Assembly (NCBI RefSeq): GCF_041886205.1
Contig: NZ_CP169029.1
Source: Escherichia coli
GTDB taxonomy: Bacteria; Pseudomonadota; Gammaproteobacteria; Enterobacterales; Enterobacteriaceae
DNA: 64,000 nucleotides
Direction: 5' to 3' (one strand)
In this document: positions 412 to 53,365 of the stretch, one piece after another
Numbering within the stretch: the first letter of the stretch is position 1
Layout of the letters: each line of letters begins with the position of its first letter
Translations under genes and position numbers: made by a program
Notes under the pieces: model-generated
Told to the model about the DNA's origin: nothing
Database searches by the model: none
The model's input: only the letters and a program-made list of their open reading frames with translations

Positions 412-1002
412 ATGATGGATAACATGCAGACTGAAGCACAACCGACACGGACCCGGATCCTCAATGCTGCCAGAGAGATTTTTTCAGAAAATGGATTTCA
501 CAGTGCCTCGATGAAAGCCATCTGTAAATCTTGCGCCATTAGTCCCGGGACGCTCTATCACCATTTCATCTCCAAAGAAGCCTTGATTCAGGCGATTATC
601 TTACAGGACCAGGAGAGGGCGCTGGCTCGTTTCCGGGAACCGATTGAAGGGATTCATTTTGTTGACTATATGGTCGAGTCTATTGTCTCTCTCACCCATG
701 AAGCCTTTGGGCAACGGGCGCTGGTGGTCGAAATTATGGCGGAAGGGATGCGTAACCCACAGGTCGCCGCCATGCTTAAAAATAAGCATATGACGATCAC
801 TGAATTTGTTGCTCAGCGGATGCGTGATGCCCAGCAAAAAGGCGAGATAAGCCCAGACATCAACACGGCAATGACTTCACGTTTACTGCTGGATCTGACC
901 TACGGTGTACTGGCCGATATCGAAGCGGAAGACCTGGCGCGTGAAGCGTCGTTTGCTCAGGGATTACGCGCGATGATTGGCGGTATCTTAACCGCATCCT
1001 GA
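412..1002 (+). CDS. uidR: TetR-family repressor of the glucuronide operon
   Basis: 196-aa ORF with an N-terminal TetR HTH (TRILNAAREIFSENGFHSASMKAICKSCAISPGTLYHHF). It lies directly upstream of uidA. Confidence 0.95.
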   Translation: MMDNMQTEAQPTRTRILNAAREIFSENGFHSASMKAICKSCAISPGTLYHHFISKEALIQAIILQDQERALARFREPIEGIHFVDYMVESIVSLTHEAFGQRALVVEIMAEGMRNPQVAAMLKNKHMTITEFVAQRMRDAQQKGEISPDINTAMTSRLLLDLTYGVLADIEAEDLAREASFAQGLRAMIGGILTAS

Positions 1003-1331: not shown

Positions 1332-4573
<3,242 letters not shown>

Positions 4574-4611
4574 TATTCAATAAAAATAATCAGAACATCA
4601 AAGGTGCAACT

Positions 4612-5877
4612 ATGAGAAAAATAGTGGCCATGGCCGTTATTTGCCTGACGGCTGCCTCTGGCCTTACCTCTGCTTATGCGGCGCAACTGGCTGACGATGA
4701 AGCGGGACTACGCATCAGACTGAAAAACGAATTGCGCAGGGCTGATAAGCCCAGTGCTGGCGCGGGAAGAGATATTTACGCATGGGTACAGGGAGGATTG
4801 CTCGATTTCAATAGTGGTTATTATTCCAATATTATTGGCGTTGAAGGCGGAGCGTATTATGTTTATAAATTAGGTGCTCGTGCTGATATGAGTACCCGTT
4901 GGTATCTTGATGGTGATAAAAGTTTTGGCTTTGCCCTGGGGGCAGTAAAAATAAAACCCAGTGAAAATAGCCTGCTTAAATTAGGTCGCTTCGGGACGGA
5001 TTATAGTTATGGTAGCTTACCTTATCGTATTCCGTTAATGGCTGGCAGTTCGCAACGTACACTACCGACAGTTTCTGAAGGCGCATTAGGTTATTGGGCT
5101 TTAACGCCAAATATTGATCTGTGGGGAATGTGGCGTACACGAGTATTTTTATGGACCGATTCAACAACCGGTATTCGTGATGAAGGGGTGTATAACAGCC
5201 AGACGGGAAAATACGATAAACATCGCGCACGTTCTTTTTTAGCCGCCAGTTGGCATGATGATACCAGTCGCTATTCTCTGGGGGCATCGGTACAGAAAGA
5301 TGTTTCCAATCAGATACAAAGTATTCTCGAGAAAAGCATACCGCTCGACCCGAATTATACGTTGAAAGGGGAGTTGCTCGGCTTTTACGCGCAGCTCGAA
5401 GGTTTAAGTCGTAATACCAGCCAGCCCAATGAAACGGCGTTGGTTAGTGGACAATTGACCTGGAATGCGCCGTGGGGAAGCGTATTTGGCAGTGGTGGTT
5501 ATTTGCGCCATGCAATGAATGGTGCCGTGGTGGATACCGACATTGGCTATCCCTTTTCATTAAGTCTTGATCGTAACCGTGAAGGAATGCAGTCCTGGCA
5601 ATTGGGCGTCAACTATCGTTTAACTCCGCAATTTACACTGACATTTGCACCGATTGTGACTCGCGGCTATGAATCCAGTAAACGAGATGTGCGGATTGAA
5701 GGCGCGGGTATCTTAGGTGGTATGAACTATCGGGTCAGCGAAGGGCCGTTACAAGGGATGAATTTCTTTCTTGCTGCCGATAAAGGGCGGGAAAAGCGCG
5801 ATGGCAGTACGCTGGGCGATCGCCTGAATTACTGGGATGTGAAAATGAGTATTCAGTATGACTTTATGCTGAAGTAA
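4612..5877 (+). CDS. uidC: outer-membrane glucuronide porin
   Basis: 421-aa ORF with a signal peptide (MRKIVAMAVICLTAASGLTSAYA) and a beta-barrel-type C-terminus ending ...YDFMLK. Third gene of the uid operon. Confidence 0.93.
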   Translation: MRKIVAMAVICLTAASGLTSAYAAQLADDEAGLRIRLKNELRRADKPSAGAGRDIYAWVQGGLLDFNSGYYSNIIGVEGGAYYVYKLGARADMSTRWYLDGDKSFGFALGAVKIKPSENSLLKLGRFGTDYSYGSLPYRIPLMAGSSQRTLPTVSEGALGYWALTPNIDLWGMWRTRVFLWTDSTTGIRDEGVYNSQTGKYDKHRARSFLAASWHDDTSRYSLGASVQKDVSNQIQSILEKSIPLDPNYTLKGELLGFYAQLEGLSRNTSQPNETALVSGQLTWNAPWGSVFGSGGYLRHAMNGAVVDTDIGYPFSLSLDRNREGMQSWQLGVNYRLTPQFTLTFAPIVTRGYESSKRDVRIEGAGILGGMNYRVSEGPLQGMNFFLAADKGREKRDGSTLGDRLNYWDVKMSIQYDFMLK

Positions 5878-5883
5878 GAAATA

Positions 5884-5912
5884 ACGCCGGAGAGAAAAAT
5901 CTCCGGCGTTTT
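5884..5912. terminator. Bidirectional intrinsic terminator between convergent uidC and ydgA
   Basis: 10-bp perfect stem ACGCCGGAGA/TCTCCGGCGT with loop GAAAAA, followed by a T-run. Confidence 0.8.
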
Positions 5913-5921
5913 GGCTGTGAA

Positions 5922-7430
5922 TTACTGCTGCGGAATAGCGGGTACGACCGGAACATTTAATGCCGGCATTGCAAACATACCAACGAAATCTTCCAGTGGC
6001 ATTTTCTGCCCGTTTAACGTTATCTGACCGTTAGTATATTGCAGGCTGGTGGTGATGGTATTGTCCTGCAAGGTGGTCAGACGGAACATCTGCCCCATTG
6101 CTGATGCACCTTCAACTTGCTGTTTCGCCAGTTTTTTCGCTTGATCTTCCTGATAACCTTCCAGCTTCGCTACCTGAGTCATAAACTCAGTTGCCATATC
6201 CACCGGAATGGTCAGTTTCGCATCCAGAGATTTAACCGAACGATCTACTTCCTGCGCCAGCGTTTGCGGCGCTTCTTTAGTCGTTGCCGGATCTTTCAGG
6301 AACAGCGACAGATTCAGGGCACTTTCACCCTGACTGTTTTTCCAGCTTAGCGGCGCGATAGTAATCACCGGATCGCCTTTCAGCATCAGCGGCAGGGCGC
6401 TAAAGAAGGCTTCCGTCACTTTCTCCTGATAAAGTTCGGGGTTGTTGGCAATTTCTGGCTGTGCCAGCAGCGCCTGAGTTTGCGCGTTATATTGCTGGCT
6501 AAACTGATGCCAGGCTTCACCATCAATCTGGCCGACTTTTAAAGTCAGCTTGCCGCTGCCCAGATCCTGATTCTGTACCTTCAGGCTGTTTAGCGAGTAA
6601 TCCAGTTGGCTATTGATCGTTTTACCGTCATTGACCAGATCCGATTTACCGCTGATCTCCATGCCTTCCAGCAGTGCCAGTTCTTTGCCTTCCACTGAAA
6701 TGGTCATTTTTTCCAGTGACAGTTTTTGATTTCCTACACGCTCACCAAAACTTGCCAGCGTGCTGGAACCGTCGGTTTTCAGATTATTAAAGGTCAACTG
6801 CACTTTCTGGTTGTATTCGTTAACTGCGTCTATCCGACCACTTTGCGCCTCCCCGGAAAGGGAGATGGCTTTGCCGTCTCTGTCAGCATTTAACTGGAAC
6901 TCGCCGCCGCTAAAGGCGACTTTTTCATCCTTTTGCTCGTAATTCAGTGGCTTGAGCGAAATATCGGAACTGGAATCACCGCTGTAACCAATGCGCGAGT
7001 TAATCTCAAAAGGCGTTTCACCTTTTGCCATATCAAACAGTGGTTTACTTACTTCGTTATTAACCAGCGTGGTTTGAATTGATGCCATCGACGGGATCAG
7101 GTTCAGTTTTTTAAGCTGGGCAAGCGGGAAGGGACCATGATCAACCGATTCGTTGAAGATGACGCTCTGACCGCTTTTAATCCACGGATTTTCTTTCCCG
7201 GCAATGGGTTTCACCAACAGTTGCAACTGGCTGCTGAATACGCCGCGATGATAGTTTTGATAACTCACTTCCAGGTTGGATTCAGGAGCTGTCAGTTTGA
7301 GTTGCGCGTTCGCCTGCGCGACCATGTCTTCGAGATGGGTTTCAATCTTCTTGCCTGTATACCATGCGCCGCCTGTCCAGACTACGCCTAGCGCAACAAT
7401 GACGCCTACCGCTACCAGCGATTTATTCAT
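5922..7430 (-). CDS. ydgA: DUF945-family envelope protein YdgA
   Basis: 502-aa ORF with an N-terminal anchor/signal (MNKSLVAVGVIVALGVVWTGGAWY). Position matches K-12. Confidence 0.9.
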   Translation of the reverse strand: MNKSLVAVGVIVALGVVWTGGAWYTGKKIETHLEDMVAQANAQLKLTAPESNLEVSYQNYHRGVFSSQLQLLVKPIAGKENPWIKSGQSVIFNESVDHGPFPLAQLKKLNLIPSMASIQTTLVNNEVSKPLFDMAKGETPFEINSRIGYSGDSSSDISLKPLNYEQKDEKVAFSGGEFQLNADRDGKAISLSGEAQSGRIDAVNEYNQKVQLTFNNLKTDGSSTLASFGERVGNQKLSLEKMTISVEGKELALLEGMEISGKSDLVNDGKTINSQLDYSLNSLKVQNQDLGSGKLTLKVGQIDGEAWHQFSQQYNAQTQALLAQPEIANNPELYQEKVTEAFFSALPLMLKGDPVITIAPLSWKNSQGESALNLSLFLKDPATTKEAPQTLAQEVDRSVKSLDAKLTIPVDMATEFMTQVAKLEGYQEDQAKKLAKQQVEGASAMGQMFRLTTLQDNTITTSLQYTNGQITLNGQKMPLEDFVGMFAMPALNVPVVPAIPQQ

Positions 7431-46212: not shown

Positions 46213-47935
46213 TTAAGAATCAGCCTGACTCGGGATCAGTTTTTGCCAGATAGCTGAAACGTATTTTGCCTGGTAACGGGCGTCATCAAGTGCATTATGG
46301 CGCTCACCTTCGAATGGAATAGCCGTTCTGGCATCGAAGTCTATGGCTTTCCCCAGCTCAACGATTGTGCGTACATCGCGATCGTTGTAGTAACGCCACG
46401 GGCAGGGGATCCCCTGCCGTTCGTATGAACGGCGCAAAATCGTGTTGTCGAAGTTGGCTCCATTTCCCCAGACATGAACAAAAAATTCACCGGAGTTTTC
46501 GTCGATAAATTCCCGCAATTGTAACAGTGCATCATCTAACGGGATTTCATCGGTCATAATGGCAGATTGCGCTTCGCGTGATTGTTTAAGCCACCATTTA
46601 ATGGTGTCCCGATCAATGACTCCGCCAGCAGTTTCCAGATCGATAGTCTTACTAAATTCCGGTCCCATATCTCCGGTTTGCGGATCGAAAAATATTGCAC
46701 CTATTGAGATAATCGGGGCATCGGGATTTTTTCCCATGGTTTCAAGGTCGATCATCAGATGAATCCCCGCTCTGCTGGTGGATGTGAGATTATGATGACC
46801 GTTTGCCTTAATTAAGGGATCTGACGCCTCGCCAGTTTCACTATCGCTGGCATGATGCTGATTGCCGCCAGTGTTCTCCTTGTGCTGATGCGCAGTGCCT
46901 TCTATTTCCTCCGGATCATTTTCCTGAACTTCAGGCTGATTCTCTCCATCGAATATTTCCTGGTATGTTGCGTCACCCATCACCGCACCACAATCAGGGC
47001 AGTTGCCGCCACCGCTCTGACCGCAGGCGGTGCAGATCTTTTCCGGTTCCTGTTGCACTACTGGTTCAGGTTGTTTCGTTTCTGGCTCGTTTTGTTGCAT
47101 ATTTGGGCTGTTTTGTTCCGCTTTCTGGTCGTTCTGTTCCGTTTCTTGCTGGTTCTGGTTCACAGAATCGCGGGTCTGGATCCCCTTAATCCATTTCGGA
47201 TCATTCGGGTCGCTAATCCCTTCAACAAATTCACCACGTGATACTGCAAGCAGTTCATCGGCGTCAGGCTGGCTGATATTGGCTGCCTGCATAATTTTGT
47301 TTACTTCGTCAGCGGTAACTTTTACTGACCCTGGTTGTGCGGTCGTGTCAGATGCACCAGTATTTTGTTGTGAACCTGAGTATGTACCGTTTTTGCGGGC
47401 GAAATATTCTTCTTTCGTGATTTCAGTAGCCCCAGCAGACAGCGCCTTATCCAGACCAGAAAGTTTATTTGCGCGACCGTATTTTTCGCCATCCTTGTCG
47501 GTGAAGAGGAAGTAGAACGGCCCCTCACGTTCTACAGATGGTTCGACTTCCACTTTGCATTCGGTTTTTTCGTTGTCTGGAATTGCCGTTTCCACTGCAT
47601 CAGTTTCTGGTACTGGCGACGAGAGAGTATCAGTTGCGCTCTGATTTGTTCCTTCATCTTCAAACACGCCCTTTGTAGTCAGGTATTCAGTAATGTATTT
47701 GTTCAGTGCCACAGGGTCTTTGTGAATGTCGATCGGACGTTCACGGACAAGGCCAAAAATAGTCTGGCGGTCGTAGCGAAGGGCATCAGGCTGTTTGCGC
47801 ATTGATGCCGAGATACGCTTCCAGTCTTCGCGGTCGTTGTCGATAACTTCATTTTTTGCCCAGCGATGGATGCTGCCGTCAATGTTTCCGGCATCCACAT
47901 CACCAGGCCAGAGAGCGTAGGCCAGTTCGTCATCC
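46213..47935 (-). pseudogene. distal (C-terminal) part of a large early-region exonuclease gene split by IS629
   Basis: C-terminal DEDDh 3'-5' exonuclease motifs (LMIDLETMG, WGNGANFDNTIL, HNALDDARYQ). The middle is acidic and Q-rich and contains a CTACG...CPDCG zinc ribbon. The reading frame stays open upstream of the GTG called by the track, right up to the IS boundary. Confidence 0.85.
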
Positions 47936-47989
47936 TGAACCGCCCCGGGAATCCTGGAGACTAAACTTCCTGAGAAAGAGGTAAACAGG

Positions 47990-48316
47990 ATGACTAAAAA
48001 TACTCGTTTTTCCCCCGAAGTCCGTCAACGGGCAGTCCGTATGGTTCTGGAAAGTCAGAGCGAATATGACTCACAATGGGCGACAATTTGTTCCATTGCT
48101 CCAAAGATTGGCTGTACGCCGGAGACTCTGCGTGTCTGGGTTCGCCAGCATGAGCGGGATACCGGGGGCGGTGATGGAGGGCTCACCACCGCTGAACGTC
48201 AGCGTCTGAAAGAGCTGGAACGTGAAAATCGTGAACTGCGCCGCAGTAACGATATCCTTCGCCAGGCTTCCGCTTATTTTGCGAAGGCGGAGTTCGACCG
48301 CCTCTGGAAAAAATGA
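47990..48316 (+). CDS. IS3-family transposase OrfA (HTH)
   Basis: 108-aa [58 protein letters not shown]..., which matches IS629 OrfA as I recall it. Confidence 0.93.
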
Positions 48317-49203
48317 TGCCACTGCTGGATAAGCTGCGTGAGCAGTACGGGGTCGGACCGCTATGCAGCGAACTGCATATTGCCCCGTCAACGTATTACC
48401 ACTGTCAGCAACAGCGACATCATCCGGATAAACGCAGTGCCCGTGCGCAGCGCGATGACTGGCTGAAGAAAGAGATACAGCGCGTATACGATGAAAATCA
48501 CAAGGTATACGGTGTGCGTAAAGTCTGGCGTCAGTTGTTACGGGAAGGTATCAGAGTGGCCAGATGCACTGTGGCACGTCTCATGGCGGTTATGGGACTT
48601 GCCGGTGTTCTCCGGGGTAAAAAGGTCCGTACGACCATCAGCCGGAAAGCCGTTGCCGCAGGCGACCGCGTAAACCGTCAGTTCGTGGCAGAACGACCTG
48701 ACCAGCTGTGGGTGGCTGATTTTACTTACGTCAGCACATGGCGGGGCTTCGTCTATGTGGCGTTCATCATTGATGTGTTTGCCGGATACATCGTGGGGTG
48801 GCGGGTCTCATCGTCCATGGAAACGACATTCGTGCTGGATGCACTGGAGCAGGCGTTATGGGCCCGTCGACCGTCCGGCACGGTCCATCACAGTGATAAA
48901 GGTTCTCAGTATGTATCGCTGGCCTACACACAGCGGCTTAAGGAAGCCGGATTACTGGCATCAACAGGAAGTACAGGCGACTCGTATGACAACGCGATGG
49001 CGGAGAGCATCAATGGTCTTTACAAAGCGGAGGTAATACACCGTAAGAGCTGGAAAAACCGTGCAGAAGTGGAACTGGCCACACTCACGTGGGTGGACTG
49101 GTATAACAATCGACGATTGCTGGAAAGGCTGGGCCATACTCCTCCGGCAGAAGCAGAAAAAGCTTATTATGCTTCCATCGGAAACGATGATCTGGCAGCC
49201 TGA
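48313..49203 (+). CDS. IS3-family transposase OrfB (DDE integrase domain)
   Basis: 296-aa ORF with rve-type motifs (WVADFTYV..., [15 protein letters not shown]). It overlaps orfA at GGAAAAAATGATG, consistent with a programmed -1 frameshift. Confidence 0.93.
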
Positions 49204-49245
49204 GTTCACAGATAAAACACTCTCCAGGAAACCCGGGGCGGTTCA

Positions 49246-49973
49246 TCCAGTGTTTTCCATGTCTGCTTGTATTCGCGATGAATGGCAGCAATGACCGGGT
49301 TGATTTTTCCTGTTGAATTTTCAGTGTGCTGTTGATTGGCTCTGGCACGGGCGAGATCAACAACAGACGTGTATTTTCCGGCTTCCTTGCGTTCACCTTC
49401 GCGACGTTTTTTCCAGATGCGCATCTCTGCCTGAATTTCGGGCCATTTGGCACCAGGCTTACATTTATGCTTAACCCACCCGATGGCATGCAGCTTAAGC
49501 TCCGGATACATAGCGTTAACTTCTGGCATTTTCATCAACGCTTCAACGATATGGCCGTCGAATGTTGCCATGTCTTCCTGCAACAATTCCTGTGCGCTAA
49601 TCACCATATCAACAGTGATGTTTTCACATGTGTCGAACTTAACCATGACAGCGTTCTGTACTTCAGGGGCTAGGTTGTCAAAAGTGACGTTCATCGGATC
49701 GGATTCAGTCTCGACCGGGACAAAGGAAGCAGACGCCTCATCCCAGCGGTTTTCCTGCATATATTCAGCATCCCAGGAATCGAGGGCAGGGCGGGGTATA
49801 CCGGGTTTATCCTCGCAAACAAGAAATTTATAAGCGCAGTCCTGAGCAGCCGGATAATGTTCCAGGAATTGCCAGTGAAATTTTGCGCGGGCGCGACGTT
49901 CATCACCGGCTTCAATGGCAGTGGCTACAGTGAGACGAACTTCGCCGTGCGCTTTCGTGTTGTGTGCCTGCTT
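49246..49973 (-). pseudogene. proximal part of the IS-split exonuclease gene; 5' end also truncated (no start codon)
   Basis: The track ORF starts at M 49760, but the same frame is open for 71 more codons up to a TAA at 49974-49976 with no in-frame ATG, GTG or TTG (KQAHNTKAHGEVRLTVATAIEAGDERRARAKFHWQFLEHYPAAQDCAYKFLVCEDKPGIPRPALDSWDAEY-MQENRW...). Confidence 0.75.
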
Positions 49974-49996
49974 TTAACCACGTCAGGCGAGGTGGT

Positions 49997-50025
49997 ATCC
50001 TTAAAATCACCACAGTTTTAAGGAT
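49997..50025. repeat. Perfect 10-bp inverted repeat ATCCTTAAAA-N9-TTTTAAGGAT directly upstream of the 82-aa ORF
   Basis: Read directly. The right arm contains AAGGA (50020-50024), the only SD-like element before the ATG at 50036. Confidence 0.8.
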
Positions 50026-50035
50026 TCATTAAGCA

Positions 50036-50284
50036 ATGTCGCAACCACCAATAAATCCGCTTAAGAACATGAAAATTGATTACTGGTATAAAGCGCTTAC
50101 AGTTGTTGGCGCTGCGTTGTTTGTCTTTAATGGAACGTCTTTTTTTGACAGATATCCCGTTGTTCCATTGGATTTTTTGTCCTCCGGCATCTTTTTTATT
50201 GGTTTGGGGGAGTGGATTAATCACCCTCTCAAAGTGAGATTTATTGGTCCTGGAGTTTGGACTCGTGGATATAATCGTTCTTAG
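50036..50284 (+). CDS. small two-TM membrane protein, oriented against the leftward early operon (function unknown; sits where sieB sits in Rac)
   Basis: 82-aa ORF with two hydrophobic segments (YKALTVVGAALFVFNGTSFF and LDFLSSGIFFIGLGEWI). It is visibly more AT-rich than its flanks. The antisense translation is K/R-rich junk. Confidence 0.55.
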   Translation: MSQPPINPLKNMKIDYWYKALTVVGAALFVFNGTSFFDRYPVVPLDFLSSGIFFIGLGEWINHPLKVRFIGPGVWTRGYNRS

Positions 50285-50593
50285 TGCGCACTCGGTATCA
50301 TCTTCGACATACTTGGTTGTTTCCTGATTGTTACAGGAGTCGTCAAGTTCTTCTGATGTAAAACCGCAAATGGGGCACGTAACGGGAATTTTGAAAAGCG
50401 TTTCTCCGGGTTCCAGAACAAAATTTTCTGCGGTCTGATTTTGCTTCTCATATTTGTGCTCCGCGTCATTGTGAGAGCACATTCTTATTCTGAGTGCCTG
50501 TTTAAACTCACTGAAGCTGAGAGCTTCTTCGCCTTCGGCAAGACCTTCGAAGTATTCTTCGTAAGCCTTTTCCATGATTGTGTCGAAATCCAT
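50285..50593 (-). pseudogene. early-operon zinc-ribbon protein, 3' end replaced by the reverse-oriented cassette
   Basis: MDFDTIMEKAYEEYFEGLAEGEEALSFSEFKQAL...VTCPICGFTSEELDDSC... The ATG lies 1 nt after the upstream stop and is preceded by GGTGAG. Beyond about 50284 the frame runs antisense through the membrane ORF as low-complexity sequence, to a stop at 50018. Confidence 0.55.
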
Positions 50594-50594
50594 A

Positions 50595-50750
50595 TCACTC
50601 ACCTGAGTTTCTTTCCAGCCAGCGACGGGCACCATTTTCGGTTTTAAACGTTTTGCTTTTGGTATACGTCATCGCGGTGAACGTACCGTCCTGGTTGGGG
50701 AACACGCCACATACCGGAGATTCGCTGTTGCCAAGATCGATAGTATCCAT
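50595..50750 (-). CDS. YdfA-like (DUF1391) small early protein
   Basis: 51-aa MDTIDLGNSESPVCGVFPNQDGTFTAMTYTKSKTFKTENGARRWLERNSGE, preceded by GAGGtcagcATG. First gene downstream of the leftward operator region, as ydfA is in K-12 Qin (from memory). Confidence 0.65.
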   Translation of the reverse strand: MDTIDLGNSESPVCGVFPNQDGTFTAMTYTKSKTFKTENGARRWLERNSGE

Positions 50751-50932
50751 GCTGACCTCATTTCCCCTTAACGCCGGGGTAGCGGAACAAAAACCTGCTG
50801 CATAGTTATTAAAGTTGAACCCTGCCGTCATGTTCTTACGCCTCGGGCTGGCTACTTAACCCCTGACCACTGCCTGGTAACTCGAAGTATTGCCCTGCAT
50901 TCTGTGGGGCGGGGTGGGTGGCAGGCATATAA

Positions 50933-50971
50933 TGTACTTTGCGTTCATTGTTGTAAAGTACTTTTAGTACA
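50933..50971. promoter_or_regulatory. Leftward operator/promoter region: two copies of a 15-bp motif
   Basis: TGTACTTTGCGTTCA (50933-50947) and, inverted, TGTACTAAAAGTACT (complement of 50957-50971). The same motif occurs twice in the repressor-cro intergenic region. Confidence 0.55.
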
Positions 50972-51047
50972 TTTTGTGTGTAAAAAAATGAGATGGGATA
51001 AAGTGAAGCACAAACCCGGAGGAAGGCGCTACCGGATTTATGCTGGT

Positions 51048-51467
51048 TTAAGAGGCTTTTTGTTTTTTCTTTCGTGCTAACTCTTCGTAAATTGCATTGT
51101 ACTTCTGTTTTTTCTCTTCAAGAGTTTTTAAAAGTTCATCTGTCTCACTGTCAGGGAGCTCGTCCAGAAGGTCAATGATGATTTTTTGTCTTGGATTTAA
51201 CTCCTGATAGAAACGTACCTGTCCACTTTCTTCTGTATCCTCTCCCAAAAGATAGGTTGGTGTTGTTCCTATTAGTGTTGCTAATTCCCTTAATTTCTCC
51301 CGGCGAGGAATTGTTTCGCCATTAAACCATTTGCTAACCGCTTTTGGTGTTAATTTCATTCGACGGGCAATTTCTGCCTGCCTTCCATGTTGTTCATAAC
51401 CAGCGTTTTCACAGGCTAGCGCAAGCCTACTGGCGAACTCTTTACGCGCTTTATCTTCATGAACCAT
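51048..51467 (-). CDS. DicA-like prophage repressor (XRE HTH, no S24 peptidase domain)
   Basis: 139-aa ORF with HTH GRQAEIARRMKLTPKAVSKWFNGETIP. The C-terminal helical tail LNPRQKIIIDLLDELPDSETDELLKTLEEKKQKYNAIYEELARKKKQ parallels the DicA C-terminus as I recall it. Divergent from the cro-like gene. Confidence 0.8.
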   Translation of the reverse strand: MVHEDKARKEFASRLALACENAGYEQHGRQAEIARRMKLTPKAVSKWFNGETIPRREKLRELATLIGTTPTYLLGEDTEESGQVRFYQELNPRQKIIIDLLDELPDSETDELLKTLEEKKQKYNAIYEELARKKKQKAS

Positions 51468-51492
51468 AAGTTCAATGATATTCGCTCTTGAA

Positions 51493-51531
51493 TGTACTGT
51501 CAGTTCTGTTATAGCATGTACTCAAAGTTCA
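51493..51531. promoter_or_regulatory. Rightward operator/promoter region: two copies of the 15-bp motif overlapping a candidate PR
   Basis: TGTACTGTCAGTTCT (51493-51507) and TGTACTCAAAGTTCA (51517-51531). Candidate -35 TTGAAT (51488-51493) and -10 TATAGC (51510-51515) with a 16-nt spacer. Confidence 0.55.
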
Positions 51532-51546
51532 CACTGTGAGGGTGAT

Positions 51547-51801
51547 ATGAACCAGAAAACACTTGAAGATGTAATCAAAACTGTTCGCGTTGCTGTTGTG
51601 GCCGACGTTTGTGGTGTCAGCCAAAGAGCAATCTATAAATGGATGGATAACGGAAAATTGCCTCGCACAGAATATACCGGCGAAACAAATTACGCTGAAA
51701 AAATCGCTCTTGCATCAAACGGATTATTTTCTGCCGATGCAATTTTAACTATTGGCAGGAATAAAACTACTACGAAAAAGCTGATGGGAGTTGATTCATG
51801 A
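51547..51801 (+). CDS. Cro/YdaS-like HTH protein
   Basis: 84-aa MNQKTLEDVIKTVRVAVVADVCGVSQRAIYKWMDNGKLP..., preceded by GAGGGTGATATG. The track ORF is over-extended upstream to 51475. Confidence 0.75.
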   Translation: MNQKTLEDVIKTVRVAVVADVCGVSQRAIYKWMDNGKLPRTEYTGETNYAEKIALASNGLFSADAILTIGRNKTTTKKLMGVDS

Positions 51802-52223
51802 AAATCAAGCATGAACACATCCGCATGGCGATGAATGCCTGGGCGCATCCGGACGGCGAAAAAGTACCGGCTGCGAAAATTACCAAAGCGTATTTCGAGC
51901 TGGGAATGACGTTCCCGGAACTGTATGACGACAGCCATCCGGAAGCCCTGGCTCGCAATACTCAGAAAATTTTCCGCTGGGTGGAGAAAGACACCCCTGA
52001 TGCGGTTAAAAAAATTCAGGCGTTGTTACCAGCTATCGAAAAAGCAATGCCACCTCTGCTGGTGGCCCGAATGCGCAGTCATAGCTCAGCCTATTTTCGG
52101 GAACTAGTGGAGACGCGGGAACGACTGGTGAGAGACGCTGATGATTTTGTCGCAGTGGCGATCGCTGGTTTCAACCAGATGAATCGTGGTGGCCCTGCAG
52201 GAAATATTGTGGTTGTGCATTGA
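51798..52223 (+). CDS. YdaT-like protein (CII-analogue family)
   Basis: 141-aa ORF that begins MKIKHEHI and ends ...VVVH, like Rac YdaT (MKIKHEHI...VIVH as I recall). It overlaps the cro-like stop (ATGA). Confidence 0.7.
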   Translation: MKIKHEHIRMAMNAWAHPDGEKVPAAKITKAYFELGMTFPELYDDSHPEALARNTQKIFRWVEKDTPDAVKKIQALLPAIEKAMPPLLVARMRSHSSAYFRELVETRERLVRDADDFVAVAIAGFNQMNRGGPAGNIVVVH

Positions 52224-52294
52224 CTCGCAATATTCATACCGGATCACTTCCGGCAATTTGTGAGTAAAAAGATTCGGTATCAAAAGAGGTGAGT

Positions 52295-53365
52295 ATGGCT
52301 AACGCCTGGCTCAGATTATGGCATGACATGCCAAATGACCCTAAGTGGCGAACAATTGCCAGGGTGTCAGGGCAGCCAATTGCAACAGTGATGGCAGTGT
52401 ATATCCACCTCTTGGTGAGCGCGTCACGAAATGTCACGCGAGGTCACATTGATGTCACGACAGAAGATTTGGCAAGTGCGCTCGACGTGACAGAAGAGGT
52501 AATTGATTCAATTTTGCAGACGATGCAGGGGCGGGTACTTGATGGTGATTTAATCACTGGATGGGAAAAACGCCAGGTGCTTAAAGAGGACAACGGCAAT
52601 ATTTCGCAAACCGCAAAATCTCCTGCAGAGCGCAAGAGGGCGCAGCGAGAGAGGGAAAGAAAGCGGGAACAAAATGGCGATTGTCACGGCGCGTCACGAA
52701 ATGTCACGCACATGTCACGACGAGTCACGACAGATAAAGATACAGATAAAGATACAGATCAAGAAGATCAAAACACTATGGTCCATGGCGTAAAAAACGC
52801 CACGAACCAGGCAGGGGATGTTCAGACCGTCAATCTTGGTCAGCCAGCAGGCACGACACCGGAAGCCGATTCAGCGTATGCGCTGAAAGCCGATTCGGGC
52901 GCTGTGCAGCAGGTGATGACCGCAAGGCCGGAGCAATCACACCAACTGCAGCAGCCCGAAGCCGATTCCGCCATTCAGCGGGAAGCCGATCGGGTAGTCC
53001 CGGAAAACACCGGGCAGTCTGTGGGACGAGTGGATTATCCGGATGTGTTCGAACAGGTCTGGCGGGAGTACCCGTTGCGTGCCGGAGCAAACCCGAAGAA
53101 ATCCGCTTTCAGTGCCTGGAAGGCCAGATTACGCGAGGGGGTGCCACCAGAGGCCATGCTGGATGGCGTGAGGCGTTACGCAAGATACTTGGCGGCTACC
53201 GGGAAAACGGGAACGGAATTTGTTCAGCGAGCGACGACGTTTTTTGGACCGGACCGGAATTTTGAGAACTCCTGGTTGCTCCCGGTAAGCGGCACGAACA
53301 ACCAGCGTTGTGTGAATCATATTTCTGAACCGGATAACGAAATTCCGCCGGGCTTCAGGGGGTAA
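52295..53365 (+). CDS. phage replication initiator (O-like / replisome organiser) containing the putative origin
   Basis: 356 aa from the ATG after AGAGG (the track uses GTG at 52289). An N-terminal WLRLWHDMPNDPKWRTIA domain, an acidic and Q-rich linker, and a C-terminal YPLRAGANPKKSAFSAWKARLREG...ATTFFGP motif, which I recall, without having confirmed it, from phage replication proteins. Two iteron clusters lie inside the gene. Confidence 0.65.
   Translation: MANAWLRLWHDMPNDPKWRTIARVSGQPIATVMAVYIHLLVSASRNVTRGHIDVTTEDLASALDVTEEVIDSILQTMQGRVLDGDLITGWEKRQVLKEDNGNISQTAKSPAERKRAQRERERKREQNGDCHGASRNVTHMSRRVTTDKDTDKDTDQEDQNTMVHGVKNATNQAGDVQTVNLGQPAGTTPEADSAYALKADSGAVQQVMTARPEQSHQLQQPEADSAIQREADRVVPENTGQSVGRVDYPDVFEQVWREYPLRAGANPKKSAFSAWKARLREGVPPEAMLDGVRRYARYLAATGKTGTEFVQRATTFFGPDRNFENSWLLPVSGTNNQRCVNHISEPDNEIPPGFRG
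52423..52459. repeat. Iteron cluster 1: four GTCAC(G/A) repeats at 10-11 bp spacing
   Basis: GTCACG at 52423, 52433 and 52454; GTCACA at 52443. Confidence 0.7.
52683..52760. repeat. Iteron cluster 2 (five GTCACG repeats at 10-11 bp spacing) followed by a tandem 12-mer CAGATAAAGATA x2.5
   Basis: GTCACG at 52683, 52693, 52703, 52714 and 52724. The 16-mer CGTCACGAAATGTCACGC occurs in both clusters. The A-rich tandem repeat spans 52731-52760. Confidence 0.7.

Follow-up and report, generated by a model that had tools for sequence, protein, structure and literature searches.

The sieB gene of phage lambda and of the Rac prophage encodes a small membrane protein and lies in the early-left region, in an orientation opposite to PL. 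Other membrane proteins of the prophage moron or superinfection-exclusion type are lambda RexB, HK97 gp15 and T4 Imm. Long antisense overlaps between protein-coding genes of bacteria and phages are contested, because the evidence for them consists mostly of expression data from single strains. In phage P22, SieB is accompanied by Esc and by the antisense RNA sas, which provides a precedent both for antisense-linked expression and for a second product made from the same DNA (PMC12197685). Antisense embedded genes have also been described in enterohaemorrhagic Escherichia coli (EHEC; asa, laoB, ano and others, of which laoB and ano are short) and are reported to rest mainly on RNA-seq, ribosome profiling (Ribo-seq) and phenotypes (PMC6294744, PMC5810103, PMC5960689). 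Here we analyse a stretch of 64,000 nucleotides of E. coli DNA (contig NZ_CP169029.1; the whole stretch is called the window below) and, within it, the interval 49974-50284, which an earlier note had taken for a foreign cassette inserted into the leftward early operon of a prophage. We conclude that the interval is very probably a decayed copy of a widespread, native prophage module, in which a membrane-protein gene is nested antisense within an early-operon open reading frame (ORF).

The module comprises about 520 bp (49966-50492), is of a mobile accessory type and belongs to a lambdoid prophage at the Qin locus; the interval under study is its left half. It consists of a conserved leader (a core of about 35 nt followed by a hairpin that contains a Shine-Dalgarno (SD) sequence) and of a plus-strand gene for a 106-aa protein with three transmembrane (TM) helices. 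This gene is wholly antisense within the 3' two-thirds of an ORF of the leftward early operon. The arrangement is reminiscent of sieB/esc/sas in that a small prophage membrane gene occupies the early-left region and is opposed to the early operon, and the earlier note had correctly seen a reverse-oriented membrane gene in a sieB-like place. In contrast to SieB, however, the protein has 106 residues and three TM helices, and neither the window ORF nor four intact family members matched PF14163 (SieB) at E <= 1. Furthermore, the second product is here encoded by the opposite strand over the whole gene, whereas in sieB/esc it derives from an internal in-frame start. The comparison with type I toxins, which had been proposed together with that to SieB, gave no sequence match either: Hok/Ldr/TisB-like proteins have less than about 60 aa and a single TM segment, whereas the present protein has 106 aa, three helices and no Pfam match. 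The antisense partner is an operon ORF, and an Rfam scan of 47000-53000 found no family besides ALIL, although a small RNA may still be encoded there. The resemblance to the RexB/HK97 gp15/T4 Imm class is one of general knowledge, i.e. a small membrane protein that lies beside the immunity region of a temperate phage and is plausibly expressed in the lysogen; no similarity of sequence or fold to this class was detected.

The locus can also be compared with the ydfA-ydfB-ydfC-dicF-dicB-ydfD region of K-12 Qin, with which it shares the chromosomal site and the operon backbone. The ydfA gene and the first 34 codons of ydfB match (about 96% nucleotide identity over the segment), and close relatives of the window carry DicF, dicB and ydfD. 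The differences are that a 517-bp module takes the place of the ydfC segment and that dicF, dicB and ydfD have been deleted from the window. With asa, laoB and ano of EHEC, the module has in common two protein-coding frames on opposite strands of one locus. The evidence is of another kind, since it is comparative (stops are avoided across some 320 nt of overlap, in 23 diverged lineages of phages) and known from sequence alone. No description of the gene pair was found in searches of the literature on ydfB/dicF, on EHEC overlapping genes, on sieB and on mEp390.

The plus-strand gene is real, as indicated by distant homologues, invariant motifs, a low ratio of nonsynonymous to synonymous substitution (dN/dS) and a confident AlphaFold (AF2) model. 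Homologues, almost all of 102-111 aa, were found in Yersinia, Herminiimonas, Reinekea, Pseudomonas, Arcobacter and various metagenome-assembled genomes, and a family profile search yielded 472 cluster representatives. Those from other orders and classes show 41-56% identity with invariant motifs. YWYKA, GLGEWxNHP, G87 and G94 are invariant in the family, and the window protein carries both motifs as DYWYKA and GLGEWINHP. For window-type lineages, the plus-frame dN/dS is 0.12-0.19; most of the remaining comparisons gave 0.04-0.25 and three pairs gave 0.29-0.48. Substitutions are concentrated at third codon positions. The AF2 model of the intact protein (pLDDT 87.8) comprises helices at residues 17-32, 42-62 and 85-105 and a beta hairpin at 65-79. 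No significant relative of the membrane protein was found in scans of Pfam, NCBIfam, PADLOC and PHROG; for the two proteins together, the scans returned, beyond phrog_35040 for the minus ORF, only a non-significant match to DUF7103. When PDB and BFVD were searched by Foldseek with the AF2 model, nothing reached E <= 0.001, and the top-ranking structures were generic three-helix membrane subunits. In mEp390 (L118), the copy of the membrane gene apparently starts with TTG.

The 82-aa plus-strand ORF noticed earlier (50036-50284) is present, and the suspicion that it might be a fragment of a longer gene was borne out: it is an amber-cut allele of a 106-codon gene ending at 50356. Close E. coli relatives read ...GYNRSSCALGIIFDILGCFLIVTGVVKFF; at the second Ser codon of this sequence (codon 83), the window has TAG instead, and the codons beyond are intact as far as the TGA. 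Since the third helix comprises residues 85-105, the amber product lacks this conserved helix with its invariant G87 and G94, and the window copy most likely yields a non-functional membrane protein. The intact protein has three hydrophobic helices, not the two segments of the earlier description. Of the 786 complete genomes with the segment, 43 have the amber allele (identity over 61 nt). E. coli strain 503025 (L001) has this allele and phage HannyBb (L002) does not.

On the minus strand, the frame of the partner ORF is unbroken from 50593 or 50635 down to 50018 and runs antisense through the entire membrane gene. The earlier note had this gene lose sensible sequence at about 50284; the frame is in fact open to 50018, and 50284 is the site of the amber point mutation. 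Because this change is Arg-to-Leu on the minus strand, the partner ORF is still intact. It begins with a YdfB-like N-terminus (50492-50593), continues with a conserved motif, PGETLFKIPVTCPICGFT (50357-50410), and ends with the antisense tail. It corresponds to P0059 (1,798 members) and to phrog_35040. Its first 34 residues are identical to those of K-12 YdfB (42 aa), after which the two diverge, and PGAP calls it a partial ydfB pseudogene. Over the 18 codons of the motif, read from 50410 down to 50357 just outside the membrane gene, the ratio of nonsynonymous to synonymous differences (pN/pS) is 0.42, and differences by codon position number 60/52/97. Diverged lineages keep the motif with varying third positions (Ile as ATT, ATC or ATA; Pro as CCC, CCA, CCG or CCT; Cys as TGC or TGT). 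Beside the overlap, two conserved types of motif occur: IPxxCPxCGF or, in other lineages, PGSVxID...VTLxGW as a second N-terminal domain. Short forms of the partner start 31-46 codons ahead of the overlap, and in the 20 nt upstream of the partner ATG of several lineages there are SD-like purine runs (GAGG, AAGGAG). The label of zinc-ribbon protein was not upheld: conservation extends to only one CPxC(G) knuckle, which type A partners (mEp390, L019) lack altogether, and no Pfam zinc-ribbon match was obtained.

Three side observations concern this ORF. In Yersinia enterocolitica, L003 differs from L004 and L005 by an A6 versus A7 homopolymer upstream of CPICGF, which shifts the partner ORF out of frame with the MGYTQK start in one of the three assemblies; either the sequencing is in error or the tract is phase-variable. 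In the proteins P0065, P0066 and P0069, the partner ORF passes through both membrane gene and leader and extends, without a change of frame, into YdfC (MQKREPVIIAPDY...), so that module and ydfC form together one ORF of 245-271 aa in some prophages. The Yersinia prophage L005 (about 470-790, minus strand) has, between the repressor gene and the partner ORF, a hairpin that resembles a terminator and a promoter-like site, TTGACC-N17-TAATAT; with this site, the partner would be the first gene of the leftward early transcript.

No stop was found in the codon-aligned antisense frame of any enterobacterial phage copy of the first set examined. Further lineages were obtained from a viral-contig scan anchored on the mEp390-type protein, the copies were grouped in 23 clusters of less than 85% nucleotide identity, and the expected number of stops was derived from the codon usage of neighbouring genes. 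Seven antisense stops were observed versus 99 expected, and 19 of the 23 clusters had none at all, compared with 0.4 expected (Poisson-binomial P ~1e-35, with clusters taken as independent). In the remaining four clusters, the first stop is found within the plus gene at a distance of only 12-51 nt from its 5' end. The codons that create stops on the opposite strand are rare in embedded copies (CTA+TCA 1/329, TTA 6/56), as compared with 21% A-ending codons in the Val/Pro/Thr/Ala/Gly boxes (p ~1e-27). No such avoidance is seen in family members that are not embedded, where A-ending codons make up 31% of the control boxes, CTA+TCA 30%, and TTA is found at 48/75. This within-gene control rules out composition as the cause. 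The antisense-frame omega is about 1 or above, and purifying selection on amino acids was seen on the minus frame only in the N-terminal domain outside the overlap (pN/pS 0.42). The conserved property is therefore the open frame, not its amino-acid sequence. Both frames are thus maintained in phages, the plus frame by ordinary purifying selection and the minus frame through its conserved N-terminal domain (about 35 aa) and a strict exclusion of stops across the overlap.

In the leader, the 85 nt 5' of the plus ATG are better conserved than the coding region. In its general form, GCCTG-N7/8-CCAC-N-TCAGGC-N2-4-GTGGTATC, the core occurs in more than 120 IMG/VR viral contigs and stands, at a fixed distance, 5' of more than 25 unrelated small cargo genes (loci L210-L330, L121 and L122 among them). 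It is always followed on its 3' side by a hairpin of variable sequence, found at the same position in 49 distinct leaders. The perfect inverted repeat, the AAGGA in its right arm and the ATG downstream are all present in the window as first described, and the burial of the SD-like sequence in the hairpin is general, since 44 of the 49 leaders have such a triplet paired in the 3' arm. The window has 6 sites with a perfect 10-bp inverted repeat and a short spacer (about 0.85 expected in 64 kb). The hairpin RNA folds at -16.8 kcal/mol (z = -3.9), and the stop codon of the minus ORF (50018-50020) lies inside it. As the right arms vary, covariation was assessed by comparing own-arm with foreign-arm pairing: in the distal stem, own arms formed 5.0 of 6 pairs and foreign arms 4.4, and none of 2000 permutations reached the observed mean. 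The minus-strand hairpin folds slightly more stably in 35 of 47 cases, and we read the loop lengths as more compatible with a canonical H-type pseudoknot on the minus strand than on the plus strand.

The leader element had no match in Rfam, even at permissive thresholds, which returned only noise. No intrinsic terminator follows the hairpin on either strand, and the core was not present in modules on the PR side. The element is similar to SD-sequestering hairpins and RNA thermometers in having an A/U-rich stem, in which UCCUU pairs with the AAGGA SD sequence 11 nt before the start, and in being kept before many genes; it differs from both by the conserved core of about 35 nt that precedes the hairpin and is not in Rfam. 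It could be a new cis-regulatory RNA (possibly a minus-strand pseudoknot) or a recombination boundary. Other cargo of this leader includes a 77-aa soluble protein gene in L121 (5282-5534, plus strand), which converges on and overlaps the 3' end of an 86-aa gene (5509-5769, minus strand), this pair adjoining a LexA-like repressor. There are also zinc-finger-like proteins of 66 aa (MNTIKFSCPECG..., L218 and L283) and 67 aa (MFMGAFDNQEITLPACPKCG..., L259 and L265), the genes of which each have one stop-free antisense frame; they are short, so that this may be due to chance. Rfam matches to STnc100 were found directly downstream of the core in L212 (3043-3265, minus strand) and directly downstream of DicF in L001 (3735-3944, minus strand). 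Their location on the early transcript points to a conserved RNA region that early-left operons may share.

The module is old and native. The search set consisted of 5,426 complete E. coli genomes, besides draft contigs and IMG/VR viral contigs; the segment with the module was found in 786 of the complete genomes, with intact neighbours, and the module recurs in Yersinia and in many IMG/VR prophages. The GC content of the interval is indeed lower than that of its flanks (0.40-0.42 versus 0.49), as the earlier note had it. In a BLAST comparison of strain 503025 with the K-12 Qin region, homology ends at position 4211 of L001 and restarts at 4729. Since the end of K-12 Qin homology corresponds to 49975/49976 of the window, 49976 is a true mosaic joint, the right joint being 50492 and not 50284.

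The decay of the window copy results from three independent events: the amber codon, a 927-bp deletion and an insertion sequence (IS). The second of these accounts for the appearance of the left neighbour. Its minus frame is indeed open from 49973 down to the first ATG at 49760, and the boundary at 49973 holds as the mosaic joint with K-12 Qin (49975/49976); it is not the breakpoint of the exonuclease gene. Window positions 49243-49933 correspond to 2544-3234 of L001, and 49926-52000 to 4162-6236. Hundreds of complete E. coli genomes match at 99.7-99.9% identity, always with about 930 bp extra between the two halves of the query. In L001, two copies of the 8-bp sequence TACAGTGA (3227-3234 and 4162-4169) flank the missing segment, and a single copy is left in the window. 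The 927 bp comprise 64 nt from the very start of the exonuclease gene, as well as ydfD, dicB and DicF (Rfam match of 72.5 bits). As the earlier note had reported, none of the last three is found in the window (DicF by Rfam scan); L001 carries them inside the segment deleted here. The loss of the exonuclease 5' end is thus a separate microhomology deletion, 43 bp to the left of the boundary first proposed. Its junction occurs in none of the 5,426 complete genomes, and in identical form in 11 draft contigs. In one of the draft contigs (L124), which is otherwise identical, window position 47935 directly abuts 49243; the stretch in between is therefore an IS3-family insertion in the exonuclease gene, and it is unrelated to the membrane-gene cassette. 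The product called at the IS-free locus of L124 has 744 aa and is YdfE_C/Rv2179c-like. Upstream in the leftward operon, the ydfA stop lies 1 nt ahead of the partner ATG at 50593. The features are listed in Table 1.

Table 1. Positions in the window of the module, its two genes and the neighbouring features
Feature	Start	End	Strand	Evidence or remark
Leader core GCCTG-N7-CCAC-G-TCAGGC-GA-GGTGGTATC, left end of module	49966	49999	+	Near-invariant from E. coli to Yersinia
Perfect 10-bp inverted repeat ATCCTTAAAA-N9-TTTTAAGGAT	49997	50025	+	Hairpin; 3' arm with AAGGA at 50020-50024
Gene for 106-aa three-TM protein, uncharacterised family	50036	50356	+	ATG 50036, TGA 50354-50356; amber TAG 50282-50284 in the window
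Early-operon partner ORF	50018	50635	-	205 aa from ATG 50635 or 191 aa from ATG 50593; ORF listing
Mosaic module versus K-12 Qin	49976	50492		Replaces 396-bp ydfB-tail/ydfC segment; BLAST of L001 versus K-12 Qin
ydfA (DUF1391), upstream gene of leftward operon	50595	50831	-	Pfam PF07151, E = 6.7e-26; annotated in L001
DicA-like helix-turn-helix (HTH) repressor, immunity region	51048	51467	-	ORF listing; homologous coding sequence is helix-turn-helix in L001, HTH_3 in L124
Exonuclease gene (YdfE/Exo VIII-like), first 64 nt gone, split by IS	46216	49933	-	Match to annotated exonuclease coding sequence of L001
Junction of 927-bp deletion, 8-bp microhomology TACAGTGA	49926	49933		Two TACAGTGA copies in L001 flank the missing segment
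IS3-family insertion sequence inside exonuclease gene	47936	49242	+	Transposase ORF 48313-49203; ALIL frameshift pseudoknot 48271-48387

Position relative to the immunity region is a recurrent property of the membrane gene. In Yersinia and in several types of Escherichia prophages, it lies just past the repressor gene and is oriented against the leftward early operon; the early-left position, opposed to the early operon and near the repressor, holds in the window, in Yersinia, in L009-L013 and in L177. In mEp390-type phages, the gene is found between cro and cII, oriented against the rightward operon. Clustering of neighbours of the non-phage family members identified a cI-like repressor as the only recurrent one. 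Arcobacter sp. has three identical copies of the family on one chromosome (L023, L024 and L025), each near a cI-like repressor; the antisense frame of these copies is full of stops, which indicates that embedding is not universal among phage-borne copies. At the mEp390 locus, GenBank annotates the antisense ORF gp39, not the membrane gene. More generally, public records show only the antisense ORF (mEp390 gp39, L118 3456-3911; HannyBb CDS0038, L002 4045-4662; phrog_35040), and in RefSeq L001 3768-4727 bears nothing but 'ydfB pseudogene'. With annotation that is antisense-only or absent, the three-TM family is largely invisible in phage protein libraries.

We considered the possibility that an exclusion or toxin cassette (49974-50284) had been spliced in by illegitimate recombination and had cut both neighbours, as the earlier note had proposed. 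The left edge does coincide with the end of K-12 Qin homology, the GC content is low and both neighbours look damaged if read in isolation. Yet, about 790 E. coli genomes carry the module with intact neighbours, relatives of 99.8% identity have it together with an intact exonuclease start, ydfD, dicB and DicF, the truncation on the left is a separate deletion junction 43 bp away, the frame on the right is intact and 50284 is a point nonsense mutation. This model is refuted by the alignments to L001, HannyBb and L124, and we regard it as extremely improbable. Another possibility, just as improbable in our view, is that only the 205-aa minus ORF (that of HannyBb, mEp390 gp39 and phrog_35040) is a gene and that the plus ORF is a shadow frame; the earlier note had foreseen that a longer intact minus-strand gene in relatives would make the plus ORF an artefact. 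Such a minus-strand gene was indeed found, and gene callers often choose the longer minus ORF. Plus homologues are nevertheless present in distant taxa where the antisense frame is filled with stops, and the plus dN/dS of 0.04-0.25, compared with about 1 or above for the antisense frame, the invariant motifs and the confident AF2 fold all argue for two maintained frames. Conversely, the minus ORF might be real only up to the CPICGF motif, its long tail being a frame left open by chance. By chance alone, the codon-aligned antisense frame is open more often than any other (for the window's own genes, in about 8% of 106-codon stretches), the tail omega is about 1, and L013 has a TGA right after CPVC. 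This explanation remains very unlikely in view of the 19 stop-free lineages out of 23 (0.4 expected) and of the specific avoidance of TTA, CTA and TCA, other A-ending codons being normal and non-embedded members showing no avoidance.

As to the function of the nested pair, our best guess, from position, orientation and the P22 sieB/esc/sas precedent, is an exclusion-type role. The membrane protein may be expressed in the lysogen as an accessory function, which would most likely be directed, at the membrane, against superinfecting phage. Its synthesis would take place under repression of the early promoter, with the SD hairpin restricting translation. Firing of the early operon would silence the membrane gene through convergent transcription and antisense pairing, and the partner ORF would then be translated by ribosomes that pass across this gene. 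In the partner tail, selection would bear on the fact of translation, or on length or composition, rather than on a specific amino-acid sequence. Several results weigh against this proposal. Nothing in Pfam, NCBIfam, PADLOC, PDB or BFVD ties the membrane protein to exclusion. A promoter consensus scan found nothing usable for the plus gene; from the best promoter-like match, the extended -10 TGGTATCCT, transcription would begin inside the left arm of the hairpin. The translational gating suggested in the earlier note is not secure, because the minus-strand folds are slightly better. The tail, with its omega of about 1, shows no independent amino-acid constraint, so that no specific tail fold is indicated. 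Finally, the other cargo genes of the slot (42 other cargo classes) have antisense stops in every frame, from which it follows that stop avoidance is specific to the membrane-gene pair.

Two explanations of the open tail were rated about equal, and each is held only tentatively. The pair might provide self-immunity, the membrane protein being an abortive-infection or exclusion effector that the early partner would neutralise, so that the phage could grow after induction. The sieB-like position and orientation, the fact that the two genes are inseparable by recombination, the restriction of the partner ORF to this cargo among those of the slot and the SieB/Esc/sas system of P22 (PMC12197685) are consistent with this, whereas the lack of SieB homology and of independent constraint on the tail sequence is not. 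Alternatively, the tail might act as an anti-polarity bridge that keeps ribosomes on the early transcript over the inverted gene, thereby preventing Rho termination or attack of the duplex by RNase III. If so, openness of the frame should matter rather than its sequence, as is observed, and the module does lie upstream of essential early genes, for instance between cro and cII. In contrast, other inverted cargo in the same slot has no open antisense frame, and the partner has its own conserved N-terminal domain. As a general rule of the slot, anti-polarity was rejected on account of the stops in the 42 other cargo classes. A more specific form of self-immunity, in which the antisense tail would be a working polypeptide that binds and neutralises the three-TM protein in the manner of SieB/Esc, appears unlikely. 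It would, however, explain why only openness is selected, because the tail and the membrane protein are reverse complements, so that hydropathic complementarity and co-inheritance are kept automatically.

Whichever role the tail has, the reading of the interval as a decayed copy of a native module with nested genes changes the meaning of the locus, which is a decaying prophage copy and not a fresh insertion. It also brings to light a family of proteins of about 100 aa that is systematically missed, or replaced by the antisense ORF, in phage and RefSeq records, and exposes a conserved leader, absent from Rfam, before many different prophage cargo genes. To judge from the sequence comparisons, the pair appears to be one of the rare instances, here with good support, in which both strands of one DNA segment carry a gene. 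Dozens of diverged phages remove exactly the three codons that give stops on the opposite strand, and non-embedded relatives do not. The evidence being evolutionary, the module offers a clean comparative test case for how and why antisense overlaps persist.

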